A stretch of 18,628 nucleotides of DNA. It comes from a virus (lineage: Duplodnaviria; Heunggongvirae; Uroviricota; Caudoviricetes). Position 1 is the first letter of the stretch, and every line of letters begins with the position of its first letter. The position numbers and the translations under genes were made by a program. Shown here piece by piece: positions 1,009-17,920 of the stretch. The stretch lies in IMG/VR virus record IMGVR_UViG_2731957842_000007, positions 1-18,628 of that record; one strand, given 5' to 3'. The notes under the pieces were generated by a model, which was given only the letters and a program-made list of their open reading frames with translations, was not told the origin of the DNA and ran no database searches.

Positions 1009-1083
1009 GTCCTCTTAGTTAAATGGATATAACGAGCCCCTCCTAAGGGCTAATTGCAGGTTCGATTCCTGCAGGGGACACCA
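1009..1083 (+). tRNA. argW: tRNA-Arg (anticodon CCU), 75 nt with encoded CCA end
   Basis: Cloverleaf readable in sequence: acceptor stem GTCCTCT/AGGGGAC, anticodon loop CTCCTAA (anticodon CCT), T-arm GCAGG-TTCGATT-CCTGC, 3' CCA. An integrase gene follows 160 bp downstream. Confidence 0.9.
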
Positions 1084-2419: not shown

Positions 2420-4414
2420 TTATTCAGCCTTAGCAAAAGTGGTCATAGTTGTTCCACTGAAAGTGAATGACCTGTCTGTAAGAGTAACATCCTGAATAGC
2501 AAAGTAATCGCCAACACCAGCGCCATTTACATAAAACTCGAATATCTCAGATGTATTTTCCGGAATAATATTATTAGCAATATAACACGTAGATAAAGAA
2601 CCATTTGTTGATGGTAAAGTTCCAAATAGCGTTGCATCCGATGCAGCATATATCGAACTGCTTAAATAAATATTTATATCAACATTACTCTCATAAGTAA
2701 CAATTAAGTACACCCGGTCGTTAACCTTCCACCCTCTGTCTTTTATCTTAGTATTAAGTGATAGCTTGTTAGAACTAGGGGTCGTTACGGTATTAATGGT
2801 TATTTTTGCTCCTATTGAGTTGTATCTGCTTCTGGTTACTGTATTACCAGTATTGTTCATTGTATAAAGGATTGCTCTGCTTTCTGCAAACGTCCTCATA
2901 TTAATCTTGCCTAAACAATCTCCTTCCATAACTTGTGGGCCAGACACAGTTGCACCAATATAACAATTAGTAAATACAGCATGAGCCCTGTTGTCAGTGC
3001 TTGATGCAAGTAATGAAAGTTTAAAGTTGCCCTGATCTGCAATCCAGCAACTATCAACCTTAACTACAGCATCATTGTCAAGAACAACAAACCTTCCTCC
3101 CTCATTGTAATATCCTACAAAAGCATTTACACCGCTTATTTTTACTACTCCATCTGGAACCGTAAAGATATCGCCTTGTATCGCTTCGCCATAGTACCCG
3201 CCAACAATATTGGTCACTCTGGTATTTAAGTACATGCCATGCCCAATGCCGAACTCAAGGTCACATCCAATTAAGCTTAAACCTTCAATAGGGGAAGTAC
3301 CAGAAGCATAAAAGGCATATTCACCGACCTTATTTGATGCAAATCCACAGTTATTGAACGTTACGCGGTTGTTAGCCCCAGCAAGGTGAACTCCGCGATT
3401 TGGCGCAGGAACAAAAGAACAGCAATCATAGGTATTAAGCCAGTCGTTTATAGTATAGAAGTTCGCCACCACGCCATTGATGAAACGACAATTATGGGTT
3501 CTTCCTAGGTGAACATATTGAATTCGGCAAGCATAGTTGGCGATGTTGTTCCCATCAACTGTAACGTGAGAGATAGATGTGCTACGTCTTATAGAGTCAG
3601 TTTCGTAGTACATGTTGACAACTGTCTCTCCAGTGAACCCACTCCCCGCAATAATGAATGACTTCTCAACGCCATCCCCGAATAGGTCAACAGTGCCTAT
3701 TGTTAAATCAACTGGTGACTTAACATAGTAAGTTCCTGCAGGGACAAACAGCCTCTTTCCTGCCGATAAAGCAACTGCTGCAGCAGCATTAAAGCTAGCT
3801 GAGTTATCTGCCGCTGGATCACCAGTAATGGGGAAAAATTGAGCAACAGAAATATAATCTGCTACCGTCACTTCGTACCATGGCAAAGCAGGAGATGACG
3901 GAAGAGTGCCACTACCACCGGTGTAGATTTTATTATTATACCACCACCAGTTATCAACATTAGATAACACCCCCTCCTGCCACACCCCCCCTAACGAGAA
4001 ATCAAGACCGTAAGAAGTAGCTATCTGACTTAATGATAATGTTGCTCCTCTGTCAGAAGCTAATTCTTGCCTTAATTGGTCAGGGTCATACTTCAGCACA
4101 TTAGGAAAATAGAACTGCTGTGCACCATACGCATCATAAACAGCCATAGAATGGCCTTGCACAGTTACGAACTTGGCAATCTGTCCGTTATATACCGGAT
4201 ATCCAGCAGCGTTAATGATGATTGGTTGCGAAACAGGAACGTGAGAGCCGTCTTCGTTCTCCACATAAACCTGAATCTGGTTTTCAGGATTTACAGGGTC
4301 AGTGTCAATTTTACCGATATAAATTTTGCCATTGGCTACGGCTTTAAAAGAACGAGCCATAGTGAAGAGTTGCGAAGGCATGCTTACCACAACATTTGCG
4401 GTGATATCTGACAT
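2420..4414 (-). CDS. Tailspike protein: P22-like N-terminal head-binding domain fused to a divergent C-terminal receptor-binding domain (probable glycan depolymerase)
   Basis: N-terminus [60 protein letters not shown] matches the conserved head-binding domain of P22 gp9-type tailspikes; the remainder has no P22 gp9 similarity I can see. Start placed at ATG 4414 (GGAG 9 nt upstream) rather than the ORF-track start at 4462. Confidence 0.85.
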
Positions 4415-4439
4415 TTCATTGCTCCAGACGAATGATATG

Positions 4440-4462
4440 ATGCAACCATGATGTGGTTGCAT
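4440..4462. promoter_or_regulatory. Palindromic operator-like site ATGCAACCA-TGATG-TGGTTGCAT in the tailspike/mnt divergent intergenic region
   Basis: 9 bp inverted-repeat arms around a 5 bp spacer; overlaps a TTGCAT -35-like hexamer (4457-4462) oriented towards mnt. Fits a ribbon-helix-helix repressor operator. Confidence 0.45.
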
Positions 4463-4535
4463 ACCGAAATGGTACTATTGAGTATTTATCCAGTAGGTTA
4501 CGATGCCATTCCACCCAACTGGTGAGGCATCAAGG

Positions 4536-4802
4536 ATGTACAGCAAATACGACGAGGCGCAGTTTCACTTGAGACTTCCGCATGAACTCCACGCGAAAAT
4601 TAAACAGCGCGCGAAGATGAATAACAGGTCGCTGAACTCAGAGATAATTGCAGCGATTGAAGAATCATTGGCTAAACAAAGCTCTGCATCCGTTTACATT
4701 GACGATGCAGAGCGTATGGCAGAACAACAATCTGATATGGTTAAGAAAATGGTTTTTGAAACGCTTAAGACCATGTATAGCAATAATAAAAAGGAAACAT
4801 AG
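4536..4802 (+). CDS. mnt: Mnt-like ribbon-helix-helix (Arc/MetJ family) repressor, 88 aa
   Basis: FHLRLPHELHAKIKQRAKMNNRSLNSEIIAAIEESL is a ribbon-helix-helix N-terminal fold; C-terminal DAERMAEQQSDMVKKMVFETLK resembles the P22 Mnt C-terminus as I recall it. ATG at 4536 with GGTGAGG 8 nt upstream; ORF-track start 4503 rejected. Confidence 0.7.
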   Translation: MYSKYDEAQFHLRLPHELHAKIKQRAKMNNRSLNSEIIAAIEESLAKQSSASVYIDDAERMAEQQSDMVKKMVFETLKTMYSNNKKET

Positions 4803-4872
4803 AAATCTAGTTTCCGGCTAAAATGGCATTGCCTTCATGATATCCTGTGAAAAACTAAGGAGAGTTAACCAT

Positions 4873-5358
4873 ATGAAAAAATCACTGTTAATTATCCCGC
4901 TTCTGCTGGTTGGATGCGCAAAAGTAAGTGACTATCAAGCAAGTTGCGAACAACGCTATCAAAAGCTTAGCGATATGGCTAATTGCCTTGATGCCAGAGT
5001 GAAGAACGACTCACGCATGGCATCAGCACCAACACCTAAGCTATATGTCCTTGCTGCAAAGATGCTCGGGCAAGGTGTCGATGAAGGCAAGATAAGTGAC
5101 GCACAGGCAAGACTTGAGCTTCAGAATCTTTATGTTCAATTACAAAGCCAAGAACAAGCCCAACAAATAGCACAAAGCCAAGCATTCCAGCAGGCTTTAT
5201 TGAATTATCAGGCTGTAAACACAATGCAAGCGATCGAGCAAAAAGCGAGACAGCCTGTTATAACTCAACCCTATCCAACACGAGTTGACACTTACACAAA
5301 CTGCAATTCAGGATTTGGAAACACCGTCACATGCAACAGTAGCAGCAACATTAGATAA
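4873..5358 (+). CDS. Predicted lipoprotein with Gln-rich C-terminal region, 161 aa; candidate superinfection-exclusion or moron protein
   Basis: MKKSLLIIPLLLVGC has a signal peptide and lipobox (LVGC); strong RBS AAGGAG 10 nt upstream of ATG 4873; occupies the position where P22-like phages carry sieA/immI genes. Confidence 0.7.
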   Translation: MKKSLLIIPLLLVGCAKVSDYQASCEQRYQKLSDMANCLDARVKNDSRMASAPTPKLYVLAAKMLGQGVDEGKISDAQARLELQNLYVQLQSQEQAQQIAQSQAFQQALLNYQAVNTMQAIEQKARQPVITQPYPTRVDTYTNCNSGFGNTVTCNSSSNIR

Positions 5359-5360
5359 AG

Positions 5361-7475
5361 CTATTCATATTCATTCATACCGCTTAACGAGGCGACAATA
5401 CCAGCTCTCGACAAGCGATTGAATTCATCGCTACCAATAGCATCGCGTATTGCTTTTACGGCGGCTTTATTTGCCATAAATCGGCGTTCCGCCGCCGCTA
5501 ATGCTTCTTTACTTCCGCCAGCTCTTACTGCTTTCGTGGCTTCCTGAACTGCTTTCTCTATCGCATATCGGCCGCTACGAGTGGTGGCAATTTTAGATAC
5601 AGCACCTTTTAACCCGGCGCCAACTAAAGCACCTGCGGCAGCGCCTGCAATGCCACCTCCTGCTCCACCAACAATGGCACCTGATGTTGAGTTGGCAATT
5701 GCATTTAACACTGTTGATGTGATGTTGGATAAACCGGCATCCAGATCGCGTAGTACATTGGCAGTTCTCCCTGTTCTTTCAATATACTGCTGAGGTTTCA
5801 CTGCTGCTCTTGCAAGAGTGCCATATACATCAGCAATTCTTCCGAGTTCTGAGGAATATCTGCTAATGGCTTTTACATTTTGTGGGGTAAGTATCCCTGC
5901 GATATGGTTAATTCCTGCTGCATCAGCTTTGCCACCACGTACACCATGCGAGATAGCATCTTGCAACATTGATGATATAGCAGGAACACGCTCTGATTCT
6001 GGCAGCGCGCGGATCATAGAATGGAATCCAGCAGGACCATTAAGACCTTTAGCTGACGATGCTTGAAGAGATTTTACTCCATTCGTAATCAGTGCATCTG
6101 TTGCCAAATCACGCCCAAAAACAGACTCTGCACTCTCTTGTGCGGACAGCCTCGCTTTAGACAGATCATTAGCTTTTTGCCAGTCATCAAAAAATCCGCC
6201 GTTTTCCGCCATTGTGCGCATATCATCAGTAATTGCCCGACGTATTTCCCCTGCTCTCCTTGCCGCATTTGCCTCTCCGCTACGCTTATATTTTTGCTCC
6301 GCATCAGCAAATTTCGCTCTCCATGCTTTCATGCCATCAAATGTTACTCCACCTTGATTGTTTGCCTGAACAAACTGTTTCATTTCAGGAGTAAGCGGTA
6401 TGCCAGCAGATCGCTCTGCCTGAATAACGGCATTACCATTTAGCATTCTTGCTTTTTGATTTGGCATTGTTGACCGCACGTCATCCCATGCCGCGCGCTC
6501 GGCATCCTTCATCTGATCAAGATTTTGAAGAATCCTTTGTTTTATAGCCGCACTTTTTTCTGATGCCGTTCCAGATGCGGCCCCAAATTCATCAAGGTTT
6601 CGACTTAACTTTGATGATATTTCGTTAAATGCTGCCTGATGGGCGTCCTGAACAATTCCTGGTGTTGATGCCAATGCGCCTTCGGCTTGTGCAATTCCAC
6701 GACTTCCAGATCGCATTCCTGGTGTTAATGCGTTTATATCAATTCCAGCAGACTCAGCCGCTTTTGCTACATCTTCGGACACATTAGCGGCCTGACTGGC
6801 AATTGACTGACGCCCAGCACCTGACTTTGCCATCCTGGAAACATCATTAGCAGAATTCAGTGCTGCACCACCAAGAGCCTGTGAAACCCTTGGCGCAATA
6901 ACGCGCCCGACACCTGAAAGAACGCCTTGAGCACCAATATTGATACCACCGTTAATGGCAGCATTTTGTGCAAAATCACCCTCCTGATTTGCAGCATCAG
7001 CAAGAGAACCTGCAATCATGTTTCCTGCGGAACCGATATCTCCAGCGAGCTTTGCTGGCGCTCCAGCAGCTTTTGCCGCTGTGCCAATTGGCAGGAGATA
7101 CCCACCAATTGTTTCACCGGCTTGCGCATAAGGGTCTGTCGGTCGATCGACTGGACGATAGACATCATCCAAAACCTTGGGGCCACCAAGCCCCTGGCTG
7201 ATTGCATTAATCAGACTTGCGCCACCCTGCAATACGTCAAATGGTATGTTTACCAGACCACGGCCAGCCTGTTCTGCAATTTGCCCTGCGCTTTGACCAC
7301 CAGTGAGCCAGTCAGTGGCTTTTCCTACCAGAGATTGTTCTTCTGGCTGCGATTGGTTTTGAGTGGATTGATCACCAGAAGACAGCATCTGAGCAATGCG
7401 ACGTGCTCCCTCAGTATCGCCGGCAGCATCAGCATTCCTTAACGCCGTCATCAACTGTTCGCGACTATAGGCCAT
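5361..7475 (-). CDS. DNA ejection/transfer protein, P22 gp16-like, 704 aa
   Basis: Third gene of a 7-20-16-like ejection operon on the minus strand; Gly/Ala-rich; start overlaps the stop of the upstream gene. Confidence 0.65.
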
Positions 7476-9913: not shown

Positions 9914-10758
9914 TGCTCCGCGATTATCTTGATGGTTGTGGCAGTAAACGCCGCACCATTCGACTGAATGGTTAACGTGCTGCCATTTGTGGCAAGAAAG
10001 CCGTCTTTATCCACGCTGAAGAACGTAGCTAACAAGATGTTATCGGTTGTTGTCGCCGAGTTGCGACTGCTTACCAGTGTGTCAGGAACAGAGCCGGAAA
10101 AGGTTAGCTGCATTGACCTGTTTGCGGTTCCGCTGGGCCACGTCCCGACAATCGACAGCTTGAAGAACAGGGTTTTGTTCTCGTTGAACACAACCATCTT
10201 GTTGTTAACGGTGTCGAAGAATGGTGCCAACGAGCCGGATGACGGCGTGAGCGTTTTCAGCAGGCTAACAAGGTTGGTCGGCGCTGTCGGGATGGTTACT
10301 GATACGCCAGAGTAAACAACCTCTGACTTCTTGCGTGTGGTTGCATACTCCAGAGCATCAATGCGCGTTTCATGGTCTGAAACCTGCGACTCCAGCGACT
10401 GAAGTCTGGTATCAAGCGACGCAATATCGCTTTCATTCTGAGTGATTCGTGTTTCATGTTCCTGAAGAGTTGATTCTGCCTGACTGATTCGCTCCTCATG
10501 ATTAACAAGCGTTGCTTCCGCAGCAGAAATTCGCTGCTCATGGTCAGCGAGAATCACATCCTGCTCATCGTTCCTGACTTGTGCGTCATAAGCGCCCTGT
10601 CCGGCCTCGTTGGCCTTGTTAGCCACGTTACCAACATCAGTGCCCTGTGCGATAACGTAAAGCAGATACGACTGCGAGAAGATATTGCGTGGAAGGACTG
10701 ATGTGTCGAGCCGTGTAGCCTGAATGATTACCGGCACATTGAGATTCGAATCCGCCAT
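9910..10758 (-). CDS. Tail needle protein, P22 gp26-like, with a divergent C-terminal knob domain, 282 aa
   Basis: N-terminus [43 protein letters not shown] matches the conserved gp26 N-terminal domain; central heptad-like repeats ([43 protein letters not shown]) fit the trimeric coiled-coil needle; C-terminal 120 aa differ from P22. Confidence 0.8.
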
Positions 10759-11552
10759 TACTCAATCCTTATCTGAGCGCCAGACAGAGTGACAGGTGAC
10801 TTCGTGATAACGCGCAATTTGAAACCAATGTTTTTCCTGATGCGCCCTACTTTCTTCCACAAAACGCGTTTGTCGTAAACGAACGGTTCATTCTGCTCAA
10901 TCATCTGCTCACGCCCGTAATTGATGCCGTCAGTGGTTGCAGAGAGGAACAGGCGGTCGGCGTACTGAGCTACGCCAGTGGATGATTCCACCTCCAGATC
11001 GAAGCATCTGGCGTTATCCGCTTTGAACAGTGGAGTAAACAGCAGGTGTTCCTGTTGCTTGTCGTACTGGCTGCTGATATCGAACTGCAATTTCCCGGTC
11101 ACGGACTCCAGCTTATCGCCGCACGTTATCTGATTGCCTTCATAAATGAAGTCGATAGCGCGGTACACATCGTCATACAGGCCTGTTTTCAACACACACC
11201 ATTGCGGACCATTGGCGCTTGAAGATGCGTCGTACACGAGGACGTGGCGCGGAAGGTGGATAATCAGCAGTTCATGCGCATCAAATCGCAGCGATTCCAT
11301 CACACCATCAGCCAGTTCATCAGCAGTGTAGGAGCGAAGAATTTTCTCAATGCTCGCGCTGGCGATTGGTGATACCTGACCTGATCCGATGATGTATACA
11401 GACGGCGCACCCGTTGCCGGATTGCTGATAAACGCATACGAATCAGCGAATGGCGTTTTGCAGTAAGTTCCGGCAATGCCTTTCTGCACCATCAGCGATG
11501 GTTGTGCGACATACAAAGCGGCACCATCGGAGGTCAACATGACAGTAGTCAT
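10758..11552 (-). pseudogene. 5'-truncated gp10-like tail accessory gene (C-terminal 264 codons only), at the deletion junction
   Basis: Occupies the gp10 position upstream of gp26; P22 gp10 is about 470 aa but this ORF is 264 aa. The codon immediately upstream of its ATG (11553-11555 on the minus strand) is TAA, and its first codons are antisense to the start of the N-like gene. Confidence 0.6.
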
Positions 11553-11838
11553 TACATATCTGGCTGACGATAACGCCAGAAATCGCCGCAGAGCACGCAG
11601 ACAGGCTCAACGTGAACAGGCAATGCAAGAGCAGCGACTGGCGCGAAAAATTGCGCTAAAGCTCTCTGGTTGCGTCAGAGCAGATAAAGCAGCATCACTC
11701 GGAAGCCTTCGCTGCAAGAAGGCAGAAGAAGTCGAGCGTAAACAGAATCGTATTTACTACCGCAAGCCACGCAGTGAAATGGGTGTGACTTGCTCAGGCC
11801 GCCAGAAAATGAAATTAGGCAGCAAACCACTTATTTGA
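11539..11838 (+). CDS. N-like transcription antiterminator with an arginine-rich motif, 99 aa
   Basis: MTVVITYLADDNARNRRRARRQAQREQ resembles the N-terminal arginine-rich RNA-binding motifs of lambda N and P22 gp24 (which begins MTVITY). GGAGG 5 nt upstream of ATG 11539; first gene of the rightward operon. ORF-track start 11476 rejected. Confidence 0.55.
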   Translation: MTVVITYLADDNARNRRRARRQAQREQAMQEQRLARKIALKLSGCVRADKAASLGSLRCKKAEEVERKQNRIYYRKPRSEMGVTCSGRQKMKLGSKPLI

Positions 11839-16706: not shown

Positions 16707-17268
16707 CTATCAGGCACTGCGTGAGGCGGCGCAGAACGCGAAAGATTTAGGTGGGATTAAGAATTACAAGCGAGGCGAGCAAGCTGTTGCCGAATTTGAG
16801 TCCCTGATAACGCCACACATTGTGCTGGCACTGCTGGATGAACGGGAAAGAAACCAGCAATACATCAAACGCCGCGACCAGGAGAACGAGGATATTGCGC
16901 TAACGGTGGGGAAACTGCGTGTTGAGCTGGAAGCCGCAGAGAAGCGCAACGCAAAATTACAAAGCGAGAATGCATACATCCGCAACCGGTACAAAGAACT
17001 GGACCTGTTAATCGGGAAAAACATTCTGGTCATGCAGGCTGCGATTATCGAATGGCAGGCAACTGGCGACGCTAAGAGCGGACTGGCATGGATTTATAAC
17101 ACACTGTTTGGCCCTGGCGAATTGCCGGACGAATCTGAGAAAGATGCTCAGGCCTACTTTAATCGCAAATATGCACCGATTGACGAAAAGCTTATGGAGC
17201 TTCACAAGTGGTTTTGGGAACAAAGTGAAGCCGAGCGCGCCGCCGGCATTCGCATCAAAGGAGAGTGA
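16693..17268 (+). CDS. Hypothetical coiled-coil protein (possibly Ead/Ea22-like), 191 aa, GTG start
   Basis: AGGAGG 6 nt upstream of GTG 16693; the ORF-track start at 16501 would overlap the Lar-like gene for 200 bp and is rejected. Confidence 0.5.
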   Translation: MSKIDYQALREAAQNAKDLGGIKNYKRGEQAVAEFESLITPHIVLALLDERERNQQYIKRRDQENEDIALTVGKLRVELEAAEKRNAKLQSENAYIRNRYKELDLLIGKNILVMQAAIIEWQATGDAKSGLAWIYNTLFGPGELPDESEKDAQAYFNRKYAPIDEKLMELHKWFWEQSEAERAAGIRIKGE

Positions 17269-17269
17269 T

Positions 17270-17920
17270 ATGAGCACTATCACTAAAGAACGTATCGAAT
17301 TGTTCATTAAATCCCCGCTTGAAAACGGACTTACTCGTGGCGAACAAATGGAACTGGCACGAATTGCACTGGCATCACTGGAACGCGAACTGATTCGCCA
17401 CGAGCATGCCAAATGGTCTGACTCCACATTTGGCTGCGTTGGCCCTATTGGTCCGCTGAAACATCTCTCAAAAGAGGCACTGGAAGCCGCAGCCGAACCA
17501 GACGATCTTAGCGAGTGGGCTGATATGCAGTTTCTGTTGTGGGATGCACAGCGCCGTGCTGGCATCAGCGATGCTGAAATTACCGCTGCTATGGAAGATA
17601 AATTGAAGATCAACATGGAGCGCCAGTGGCCTGAGCCAAAAGATGGTGAGCCTCGCTTGCACATTAAAGAACCCGGCAACTATCCGGTAACTCCGGATGG
17701 TTGGATAAGCTGTAGTGAGCGAATGCCTGAAAAGAATCGGAACGTGCTTATTTCGGTGAATTTCGATAGCTCTCTGGTTGAACCGCTAATATGCTCCGCA
17801 CGCTATACCGGAAGCACCTTTCGGCGCGGAGATGCAACGATTAAGCCGGGTAATGGTATTGAGCAAGCAACTCACTGGATGCCGCTACCGGAACCGCCGC
17901 AGGAGGTAAACCGTGGCTAA
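17270..17920 (+). CDS. DUF551-like phage protein, 216 aa
   Basis: AAAGGAGAG RBS, ATG 2 nt after the upstream stop; C-terminus ...PDGWISCSERMPE...THWMPLPEPP resembles the DUF551 signature. ORF-track start 17108 rejected. Confidence 0.55.
   Translation: MSTITKERIELFIKSPLENGLTRGEQMELARIALASLERELIRHEHAKWSDSTFGCVGPIGPLKHLSKEALEAAAEPDDLSEWADMQFLLWDAQRRAGISDAEITAAMEDKLKINMERQWPEPKDGEPRLHIKEPGNYPVTPDGWISCSERMPEKNRNVLISVNFDSSLVEPLICSARYTGSTFRRGDATIKPGNGIEQATHWMPLPEPPQEVNRG

Follow-up and report, generated by a model that had tools for sequence, protein, structure and literature searches.

A lone mnt gene divergent from a P22-like tailspike gene: candidate operator and probable tailspike leader hairpin

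Introduction

What does an Mnt repressor regulate in a phage that has neither arc nor ant? The role of mnt without these two partners has been an acknowledged loose end of P22-like phage biology since 2008. Villafane et al. named the region between gene 16 and gene 9 the "ant moron" and suggested that it may control read-through into the tailspike gene, with Mnt and Arc possibly involved (PMC2629481). Ant morons with mnt only occur in ST64T, ST104, Para1, and phage L (PMC2629481; Zaworski et al. 2020, PMC8022706), and mnt of phage L has been discussed as a possible functionless remnant (PMC8022706). An orphan mnt next to the tailspike gene is an already described, common arrangement, and the idea that it has acquired a new role, including tailspike control, has also been published (PMC2629481, PMC8022706). 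In this study, we analyzed such a locus in an 18,628-nucleotide stretch of DNA (the window). Two of the leads that emerged are strong purifying selection on the orphan mnt and a specificity class of its own, for which the operator can be predicted. Current concepts are unchanged; the main gain is a corrected operator assignment and an experimental handle.

A defective P22-like prophage

The window contains the following genes.

1-933: host gene yfdC, at the start of the window
1009-1083: tRNA-Arg(CCT) gene argW
1209-2402: IntS-like integrase gene
2420-4414, minus strand: tailspike gene (664 aa), start codon ATG at 4414-4412
4536-4802, plus strand: mnt homologue (88 aa), Arc-type ribbon-helix-helix domain and Mnt tetramerisation helix
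4873-5358, plus strand: lipoprotein gene (161 aa), lipobox LLVGC, phrog_6067
Beyond the lipoprotein gene, all minus strand: homologues of genes 16, 20, 7, 14, and 26 and a 5'-truncated gene 10

After the integrase gene, the window enters a P22-like (Lederbergvirus) prophage. The tailspike combines a P22-type head-binding domain (Pfam Head_binding, 2.8e-67) with a pectate-lyase-like receptor domain. Gene 10 (head closure; region 10758-11838) lacks its first ~213 codons and, at a junction near 11525, abuts a 5'-truncated gene 24/N-like ORF, beyond which lie early-left genes including erf and abc2. The loss reaches from gene 4 back as far as the immC repressor and takes in most of the genome between gene 10 and gene 24, and the prophage is defective because the immC repressor and the replication, lysis, terminase, and head genes are missing. 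The junction of gene 10 with gene 24 was present in none of 5426 complete E. coli genomes. With the immC repressor and the late activator removed by this deletion, the unit formed by mnt and the lipoprotein gene is likely the only one to be expressed in the prophage.

Beside the integrase gene, only 18 nt lie between the stop codons of the integrase and tailspike genes (2402-2420). Relatives carry an O-antigen acyltransferase or another conversion gene at this spot (e.g., L005, the FORC_041 prophage segment, at 16848-17840, and the O-acetyltransferase of Sf101).

An mnt homologue without arc and ant

The mnt homologue has the location and orientation of mnt in P22: it is flanked by homologues of gene 16 and gene 9 and runs counter to the late operon. 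Its product is 47% identical to P22 Mnt and has the same two parts. The N-terminal Arc-like ribbon-helix-helix domain matched Pfam PF03869 (8.4e-15) and PDB 1MNT (5.7e-19), and the C-terminal tetramerisation helix (residues 56-83) matched PF11423 (Repressor_Mnt, 4e-12) and PDB 1QEY (1.2e-6). The preliminary description of this DNA, made from the sequence alone, had named an Mnt-like ribbon-helix-helix gene divergent from the tailspike gene and without arc or ant partners, and it was right on all three points. The detection of both Mnt domains confirms the first and the opposite strands of the two genes the second. As for the third, a tblastn search of the 18.6-kb window yielded no homologue of arc, ant, rha, or c2. 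Neither arc nor ant occurs anywhere in the genome of the viable phage Sf101, which has the same junction, and no Rfam match to sar was obtained.

The start codon is ATG 4536, preceded by the ribosome-binding site GGTGAGG (4521-4527), and the intergenic region extends over 4415-4535 when counted from the true tailspike start. We rejected a start at 4503, since RefSeq gives 88 aa for the protein in a relative and a stop closes the upstream frame in the divergent relative L278. The recognition strand of the protein reads QFHLR.

The immI region of P22 has arc and ant downstream of a promoter, Pant, that is overlapped by Omnt. In the window, arc, sar, and ant are absent, the Pant equivalent is degenerate, and the Pmnt spacer has 15 nt. 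With mnt as its sole immI gene, the interval from gene 16 to the tailspike gene instead conforms to the Mnt-only ant moron. The morons of ST64T, ST104, Para1, and phage L likewise carry a lone mnt, accompanied by at most one small gene of unknown function. Candidate partners were discarded. Rha is a poor stand-in antirepressor, because rha also occurs in P22-like phages whose immI is complete and has no operator in its vicinity, and both the small "antirepressor" of VSe13 and the 139-aa gene of Gally are absent from the window.

A candidate operator at the position of Omnt

Three features lie immediately upstream of mnt.

4462-4474, centre 4468: candidate Mnt operator TACC-GAAAT-GGTA (extended, ATACC..GGTAC, 4461-4475), positional homologue of P22 Omnt
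4478-4504, plus strand: Pmnt-like promoter, -35 TTGAGT (4478-4483), 15-nt spacer, -10 TACGAT (4499-4504)
4502-4531: inverted repeat GATGCC...GGCATC enclosing the mnt Shine-Dalgarno GGTGAGG (4521-4527), predicted to fold

A comparison with Omnt had been proposed as a check on the operator. We aligned the regulatory regions of P22, ST64T, Gally, VSe13, and the window, and the Omnt-equivalent position and geometry fall on TACC-N5-GGTA. The annotated P22 Omnt is AGGTCCACGGTGGACCT, with GTCC-N5-GGAC boxes; counted from its centre, the Pmnt -35 TTGAGA begins 10 nt away. The window site is likewise an inverted repeat with boxes at +/-3 to 6, and its centre also lies 10 nt from TTGAGT (4478). One base separates it from this -35, so the Mnt-family arrangement, in which an inverted repeat directly precedes the -35 of the repressor's own promoter, can be read from the sequence. 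The Pmnt-like promoter is homologous by alignment to Pmnt of P22 (TTGAGA-17-TATCAT) and ST64T (TTGTGG-17-TATGAT). Its spacer is 2 bp shorter in the window lineage than in VSe13, ST64T, and P22, and the strength of the putative Pmnt is uncertain because a 15-nt spacer is poor for sigma-70.

We sorted ~190 fetched loci by the recognition strand of their Mnt proteins, and three classes were obtained.

HFNFR: 28 loci, all with arc and ant; boxes GTCC/GGAC
QFNLR: 16 loci, all orphans; boxes GACC/GGTC
QFHLR: 122 loci, none adjacent to arc or ant; boxes TACC/GGTA

The operator boxes covary with the recognition strand across these classes. P22 Mnt (HFNFR) thus differs from the window protein in its boxes, GTCC as against TACC, the latter flanking a non-symmetric centre. 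P22 Arc has a recognition strand (QFNLR) nearly identical to that of the window protein, with the same residue numbering, and its operator TAGA-N5-TCTA shares the geometry of TACC-N5-GGTA but not its boxes; Arc is, however, a 53-aa dimer without the C-terminal domain of Mnt. The ST64T-type morons belong to the QFNLR class, with the operator AGACCACGGTGGTCT, a 17-nt Pmnt spacer, and a P22-type leader hairpin (described below). Their operator abuts Pmnt (seen in L207), as does the candidate operator of the window. The window is unlike them in its QFHLR class, its different leader hairpin, and its lipoprotein gene.

Within the QFHLR class, the arms are constant and the centre is variable across Escherichia, Salmonella, Buttiauxella, Serratia, and metagenomes. 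The centres are GAAAT, TAAAT, and GAAAC in E. coli and Salmonella, AAAAT in Buttiauxella (within perfect GTACC/GGTAC arms), TAAAC in Serratia, and GTTAA in one metagenomic relative. The metagenome search pattern specified only the right arm and pieces of the promoter; it was too loose, with only 28 genuine loci among those returned, and the TACC left arm is present in all 28. In the window, TACC-N5-GGTA occurs once, against 0.07 expected by chance. Some features call for caution. The arms have just 4-5 bp, the symmetry of the site is below that of Omnt, and the tailspike-proximal arm is mutated (TACA, TATC, TGCC, or TAAC) in ~13 of 100 fetched window-type leaders despite an intact mnt. Judged by position, geometry, and covariation, TACC-N5-GGTA at 4462-4474 is most likely the Mnt operator.

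The segment between the operator and the start codon may hold a second regulatory element, the GATGCC/GGCATC repeat. The window and Salmonella phage VSe13 show 100% identity over the mnt 5' region at 4499-4535, TACGATGCCATTCCACCCAACTGGTGAGGCATCAAGG, although synonymous sites in the adjacent coding sequence are saturated.

In a Citrobacter sp. locus (L212, 3900-4240), mnt has a stop at codon 5 and the right arm of the operator is also mutated, from GGTA to AGTA; here, repressor and site appear to have decayed together.

Possible targets of Mnt

We propose that the ORF at 4536-4802 encodes a working tetrameric Mnt-family repressor of a separate specificity class, QFHLR, which in the sampled loci is almost always lone and divergent from a Lederbergvirus tailspike gene. 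Binding at 4462-4474 would set the level of mnt transcription. It would also set that of the lipoprotein gene, which begins after a gap of 70 bp in which the terminator scan found no terminator, and co-transcription of the two genes is probable on this layout. Mnt bound at this site would also stand in the path of late-operon transcripts heading for the tailspike gene. Most likely, Mnt regulates its own unit, which the prophage would express and which may or may not include the lipoprotein gene. Taken together, a repressor that acts on its own promoter from 4462-4474, beside a palindrome that would act as a leader RNA hairpin (see below), is the explanation we consider best, and we give it about an even chance of being correct.

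The lipoprotein gene has no Pfam or NCBIfam family match, and its product has a Q-rich middle. It occupies the position of sieA in P22 and is a candidate for a prophage-expressed surface or exclusion factor. Since 64 of the 122 QFHLR loci do not have this gene, it is not a conserved Mnt target.

The preliminary description had suggested that Mnt may have been rewired to regulate tailspike and/or lipoprotein expression. The lipoprotein part of this suggestion stands insofar as co-transcription with mnt is probable; control at a tailspike promoter is not supported. A consensus scan for promoters and terminators covered 4200-5500. Its output comprised two plus-strand promoter matches of 9/12, where ~3 are expected by chance, and no minus-strand promoter directed toward the tailspike gene; the Pmnt-like site was not reported owing to its 15-nt spacer. 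At the position that Pant has in P22, we read a degenerate ATGGCA-15-TAAATA in the window. Repression of the tailspike gene at the promoter level is therefore unsupported. One of the matches, CTGACA-17-AATGAT at 4408-4436 on the plus strand (9/12), overlaps the tailspike start codon, and the transcription start predicted from it lies inside the palindrome. It could be an alternative mnt promoter.

The most interesting remaining alternative is that Mnt acts on transcription passing through the locus. Bound at 4462-4474, the repressor would, together with convergent transcription from Pmnt, limit read-through of late-operon polymerases from Plate into the tailspike gene. Tailspike dosage would then be tuned, and the tailspike gene would be silent in lysogens. 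In every orphan locus, the operator separates the tailspike gene from the late genes, which is consistent with such a block, as is the retention of a QFHLR mnt by the tailspike gene even beside a full immI region (in the contig L138). The control of gene 9 read-through suggested for the P22 ant moron, with Mnt and Arc as possible participants (PMC2629481), points the same way. Against it, Sf6, HK620, and other P22-like phages do without any mnt, and antiterminated late transcription complexes may pass such blocks. On balance, we think a block on tailspike read-through unlikely.

The palindrome in the tailspike leader

The most conspicuous repeat of the intergenic region lies on the tailspike side of the candidate operator.

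4440-4462, minus strand: 23-bp palindrome ATGCAACCA-TGATG-TGGTTGCAT, 9-nt arms 100% complementary
4422-4425, minus strand: tailspike Shine-Dalgarno GGAG, within TCTGGAGCAA (4419-4428), which is conserved in 191 tailspike leaders

In the preliminary description, this palindrome was reported to overlap a TTGCAT and was taken for the operator of Mnt, and regulation of the tailspike gene, of the mnt-lipoprotein unit, or of both from divergent promoters would follow from that. The observation is accurate. The 9-nt arms are perfect, the overlapping TTGCAT lies at 4457-4462, and the palindrome is single in the window, where 0.01 would be expected by chance. An operator function would also fit with the AACC...GGTT inside it, which resembles the TACC/GGTA boxes, and with its position just downstream of the promoter-like match at 4408-4436.

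The distribution of the palindrome argues against this function. The perfect form is rare, being found in 3 of 100 window-type leaders fetched, a set that includes some contigs fetched twice. In 63 of these 100 the right arm reads TGATTGCAT and is asymmetric, and none of 17 metagenomic copies has the perfect palindrome. The commoner allele in relatives has A in place of G4456, which gives a G.U pair on the minus strand. The palindrome is absent from VSe13, L034, L050, L051, L081, and L083, which have the identical recognition strand MYSKYDEAQFHLR and a different mosaic upstream, and likewise from the QFHLR loci L209 and L211. In an Escherichia sp. locus (L208), it is replaced by ATTCAAT-N9-ATTGAAT, with two pairs changed on both sides; the DNA-binding domain and TACC-N5-GGTA are unchanged. 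The six former loci and L208 all retain TACC-N5-GGTA. Furthermore, the ACC/GGT boxes inside the palindrome are spaced by N7, not by the N5 of all Arc and Mnt operators compared, and the degenerate Pant equivalent and the lack of a minus-strand promoter in the scan also speak against the proposal. Absent or compensatorily rewritten in loci with the same DNA-binding domain, the palindrome is unlikely to be the Mnt operator, and we regard regulation of the divergent genes through it as quite improbable. The site to mutate is TACC-N5-GGTA, not the conspicuous palindrome.

The two elements belong to different modules because mosaic joints fall between them: in L046 the palindrome is present and the operator is missing, and the reverse holds for VSe13-type loci. 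The palindrome would thus be part of a tailspike leader module that is separate from the mnt module.

Read as RNA, the palindrome would form a stem of 9 bp closed by a loop of 5 nt, and 11 nt would separate it from TCTGGAGCAA downstream. Single changes are nearly all C-to-U on the tailspike-sense strand, where G.U pairing is kept; the opposite strand loses the pair. Of the cells of the window-type hairpin, 96.3% pair on the tailspike-sense strand, a value reached by 18 of 500 shuffles. Pair 18:28 occurs as U.G, U-A, and C-G, and three stem changes break a pair. The statistics of the hairpins are modest, and their sequences closely related; with so little variation, the shuffle tests on the window-type hairpin are weakly significant.

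In P22 and most relatives, the gene 9 leader (annotated as "bsq1 boundary sequence" in CUS-3) holds a hairpin of 7 bp, CCGUAGC-CAU-GCUGCGG, which is unrelated to that of the window and precedes TCTGGAGCAA by 12 nt. It is 94.5% paired, with a covariation score reached by only 5 of 500 shuffles. The 20:30 pair is most often U.G, a pair that forms solely on the tailspike-sense strand. The P22 stem-loop is GC-rich, whereas that of the window is AU-rich, and they are not homologous; both have G.U pairs that form on the tailspike-sense strand only and both stand 11-12 nt upstream of TCTGGAGCAA. The occurrence of two non-homologous stem-loops at the same place, each biased toward the tailspike-sense strand, suggests an RNA element of the tailspike leader. 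From these sequence comparisons, an RNA hairpin of the tailspike-sense leader is the more likely identity of the palindrome.

An intrinsic terminator was dismissed, since neither strand has a T-run and the terminator scan did not report the site. A search of 4200-5000 with the Rfam 15 covariance models gave no match at E <= 1, and we found no described function for the leader stem-loop of the window or of P22. The stem-loop may affect the stability, processing, or translation of the leader, for example as a stabilizing 5' stem-loop after processing, as a processing site, or through a translational effect. A conserved, strand-specific stem-loop in tailspike leaders may in this way affect tailspike dosage.

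A bolder proposal is that the tailspike gene is accompanied by a control unit of its own, made up of the QFHLR Mnt, TACC-N5-GGTA, and the leader stem-loop, and that this unit remains next to it even where immI is complete. The repressor would block or interfere with read-through into the tailspike gene, setting its level or silencing it, and the hairpin would give the mRNA a stable, processed 5' end. If this reading is true, an immunity-type repressor has been co-opted for the regulation of a structural gene. We think it unlikely.

P22 itself (L004) has two copies of the leader segment AAAATTCACCGTAGCCAYGCT, at 5042-5070 and 5150-5180, one after the ant terminator and one before gene 9. The ~80 bp between them hold another palindrome, GACCTACAAAAAAATTGTAGGTC. 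Most relatives have a single copy of the segment.

Distribution of and selection on the orphan mnt

Two viable phages, Sf101 and IME10, share the mnt-tailspike junction at ~98% identity, and related forms occur in phages Gally, vB_EcoP-720R6, and VSe13. We found the intergenic region together with mnt, at >=80% coverage, in 255 of 5426 complete E. coli genomes, in which window-type mnt is annotated as "Arc family DNA-binding protein". Strains of O26:H11 are among the carriers. A literature search found nothing linking Sf101 with Mnt.

Purifying selection on the mnt DNA-binding domain is strong. A comparison of this domain (codons 1-45) in the window and in VSe13 gives a dN of 0.077 and a dS of ~2 (saturated). 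Within the window type, mnt dN/dS is ~0.1, and the overall range is ~0.04-0.1. The ORF is intact in 120 of 121 loci that share the same N-terminus.

P22 Mnt acts in trans on incoming phage. By analogy, the orphan Mnt could protect the lysogen by shutting off antirepressor promoters with a cognate operator in related phages, whether superinfecting or co-resident, and strong purifying selection in a locus without a cis target gene would then be understandable. The search for such targets does not favor this role. None of the 122 QFHLR loci has arc or ant beside TACC-N5-GGTA, and no additional site that could serve as a trans target occurs in the window, in the FORC_041 prophage segment (L005), or in the whole Sf101 genome; in each of the latter two, as in the window, the site is single. 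Recurrent matches in 1.7 Mb of related loci lie inside the coding sequence of gene 16 and arc-like genes (NGRSINTEMV motif) and were set aside as coding coincidences, and the ant operon of L138 is under its own, different regulators. We consider a role in trans very improbable.

That mnt is a decaying, functionless leftover of immI after the loss of arc and ant, as raised for phage L (PMC8022706) and as the degenerate Pant equivalent, the 15-nt Pmnt spacer, and the defective state of the host prophage might suggest, is the least probable explanation of all, since its DNA-binding domain is under strong purifying selection, the gene is nearly always intact, mnt and its operator are conserved together across genera, and viable phages (Sf101 and IME10) carry it. 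The self-regulating repressor proposed above is preferred.

The preliminary description had seen the locus as an immI region from which only mnt remains. The absence of arc and ant is as described, and the picture is nevertheless too simple. L138, a CUS-3-like contig, keeps a full second-immunity region (two mnt-like genes, arc, ant, and an extra ant-like gene) and, between this region and the tailspike gene, a QFHLR mnt divergent from the latter. QFHLR mnt genes behave like a module that stays with the tailspike gene. In L138 (7309-10281), the QFHLR mnt is the third mnt, the two mnt-like genes are in tandem, and the tailspike is a K1-type endosialidase.
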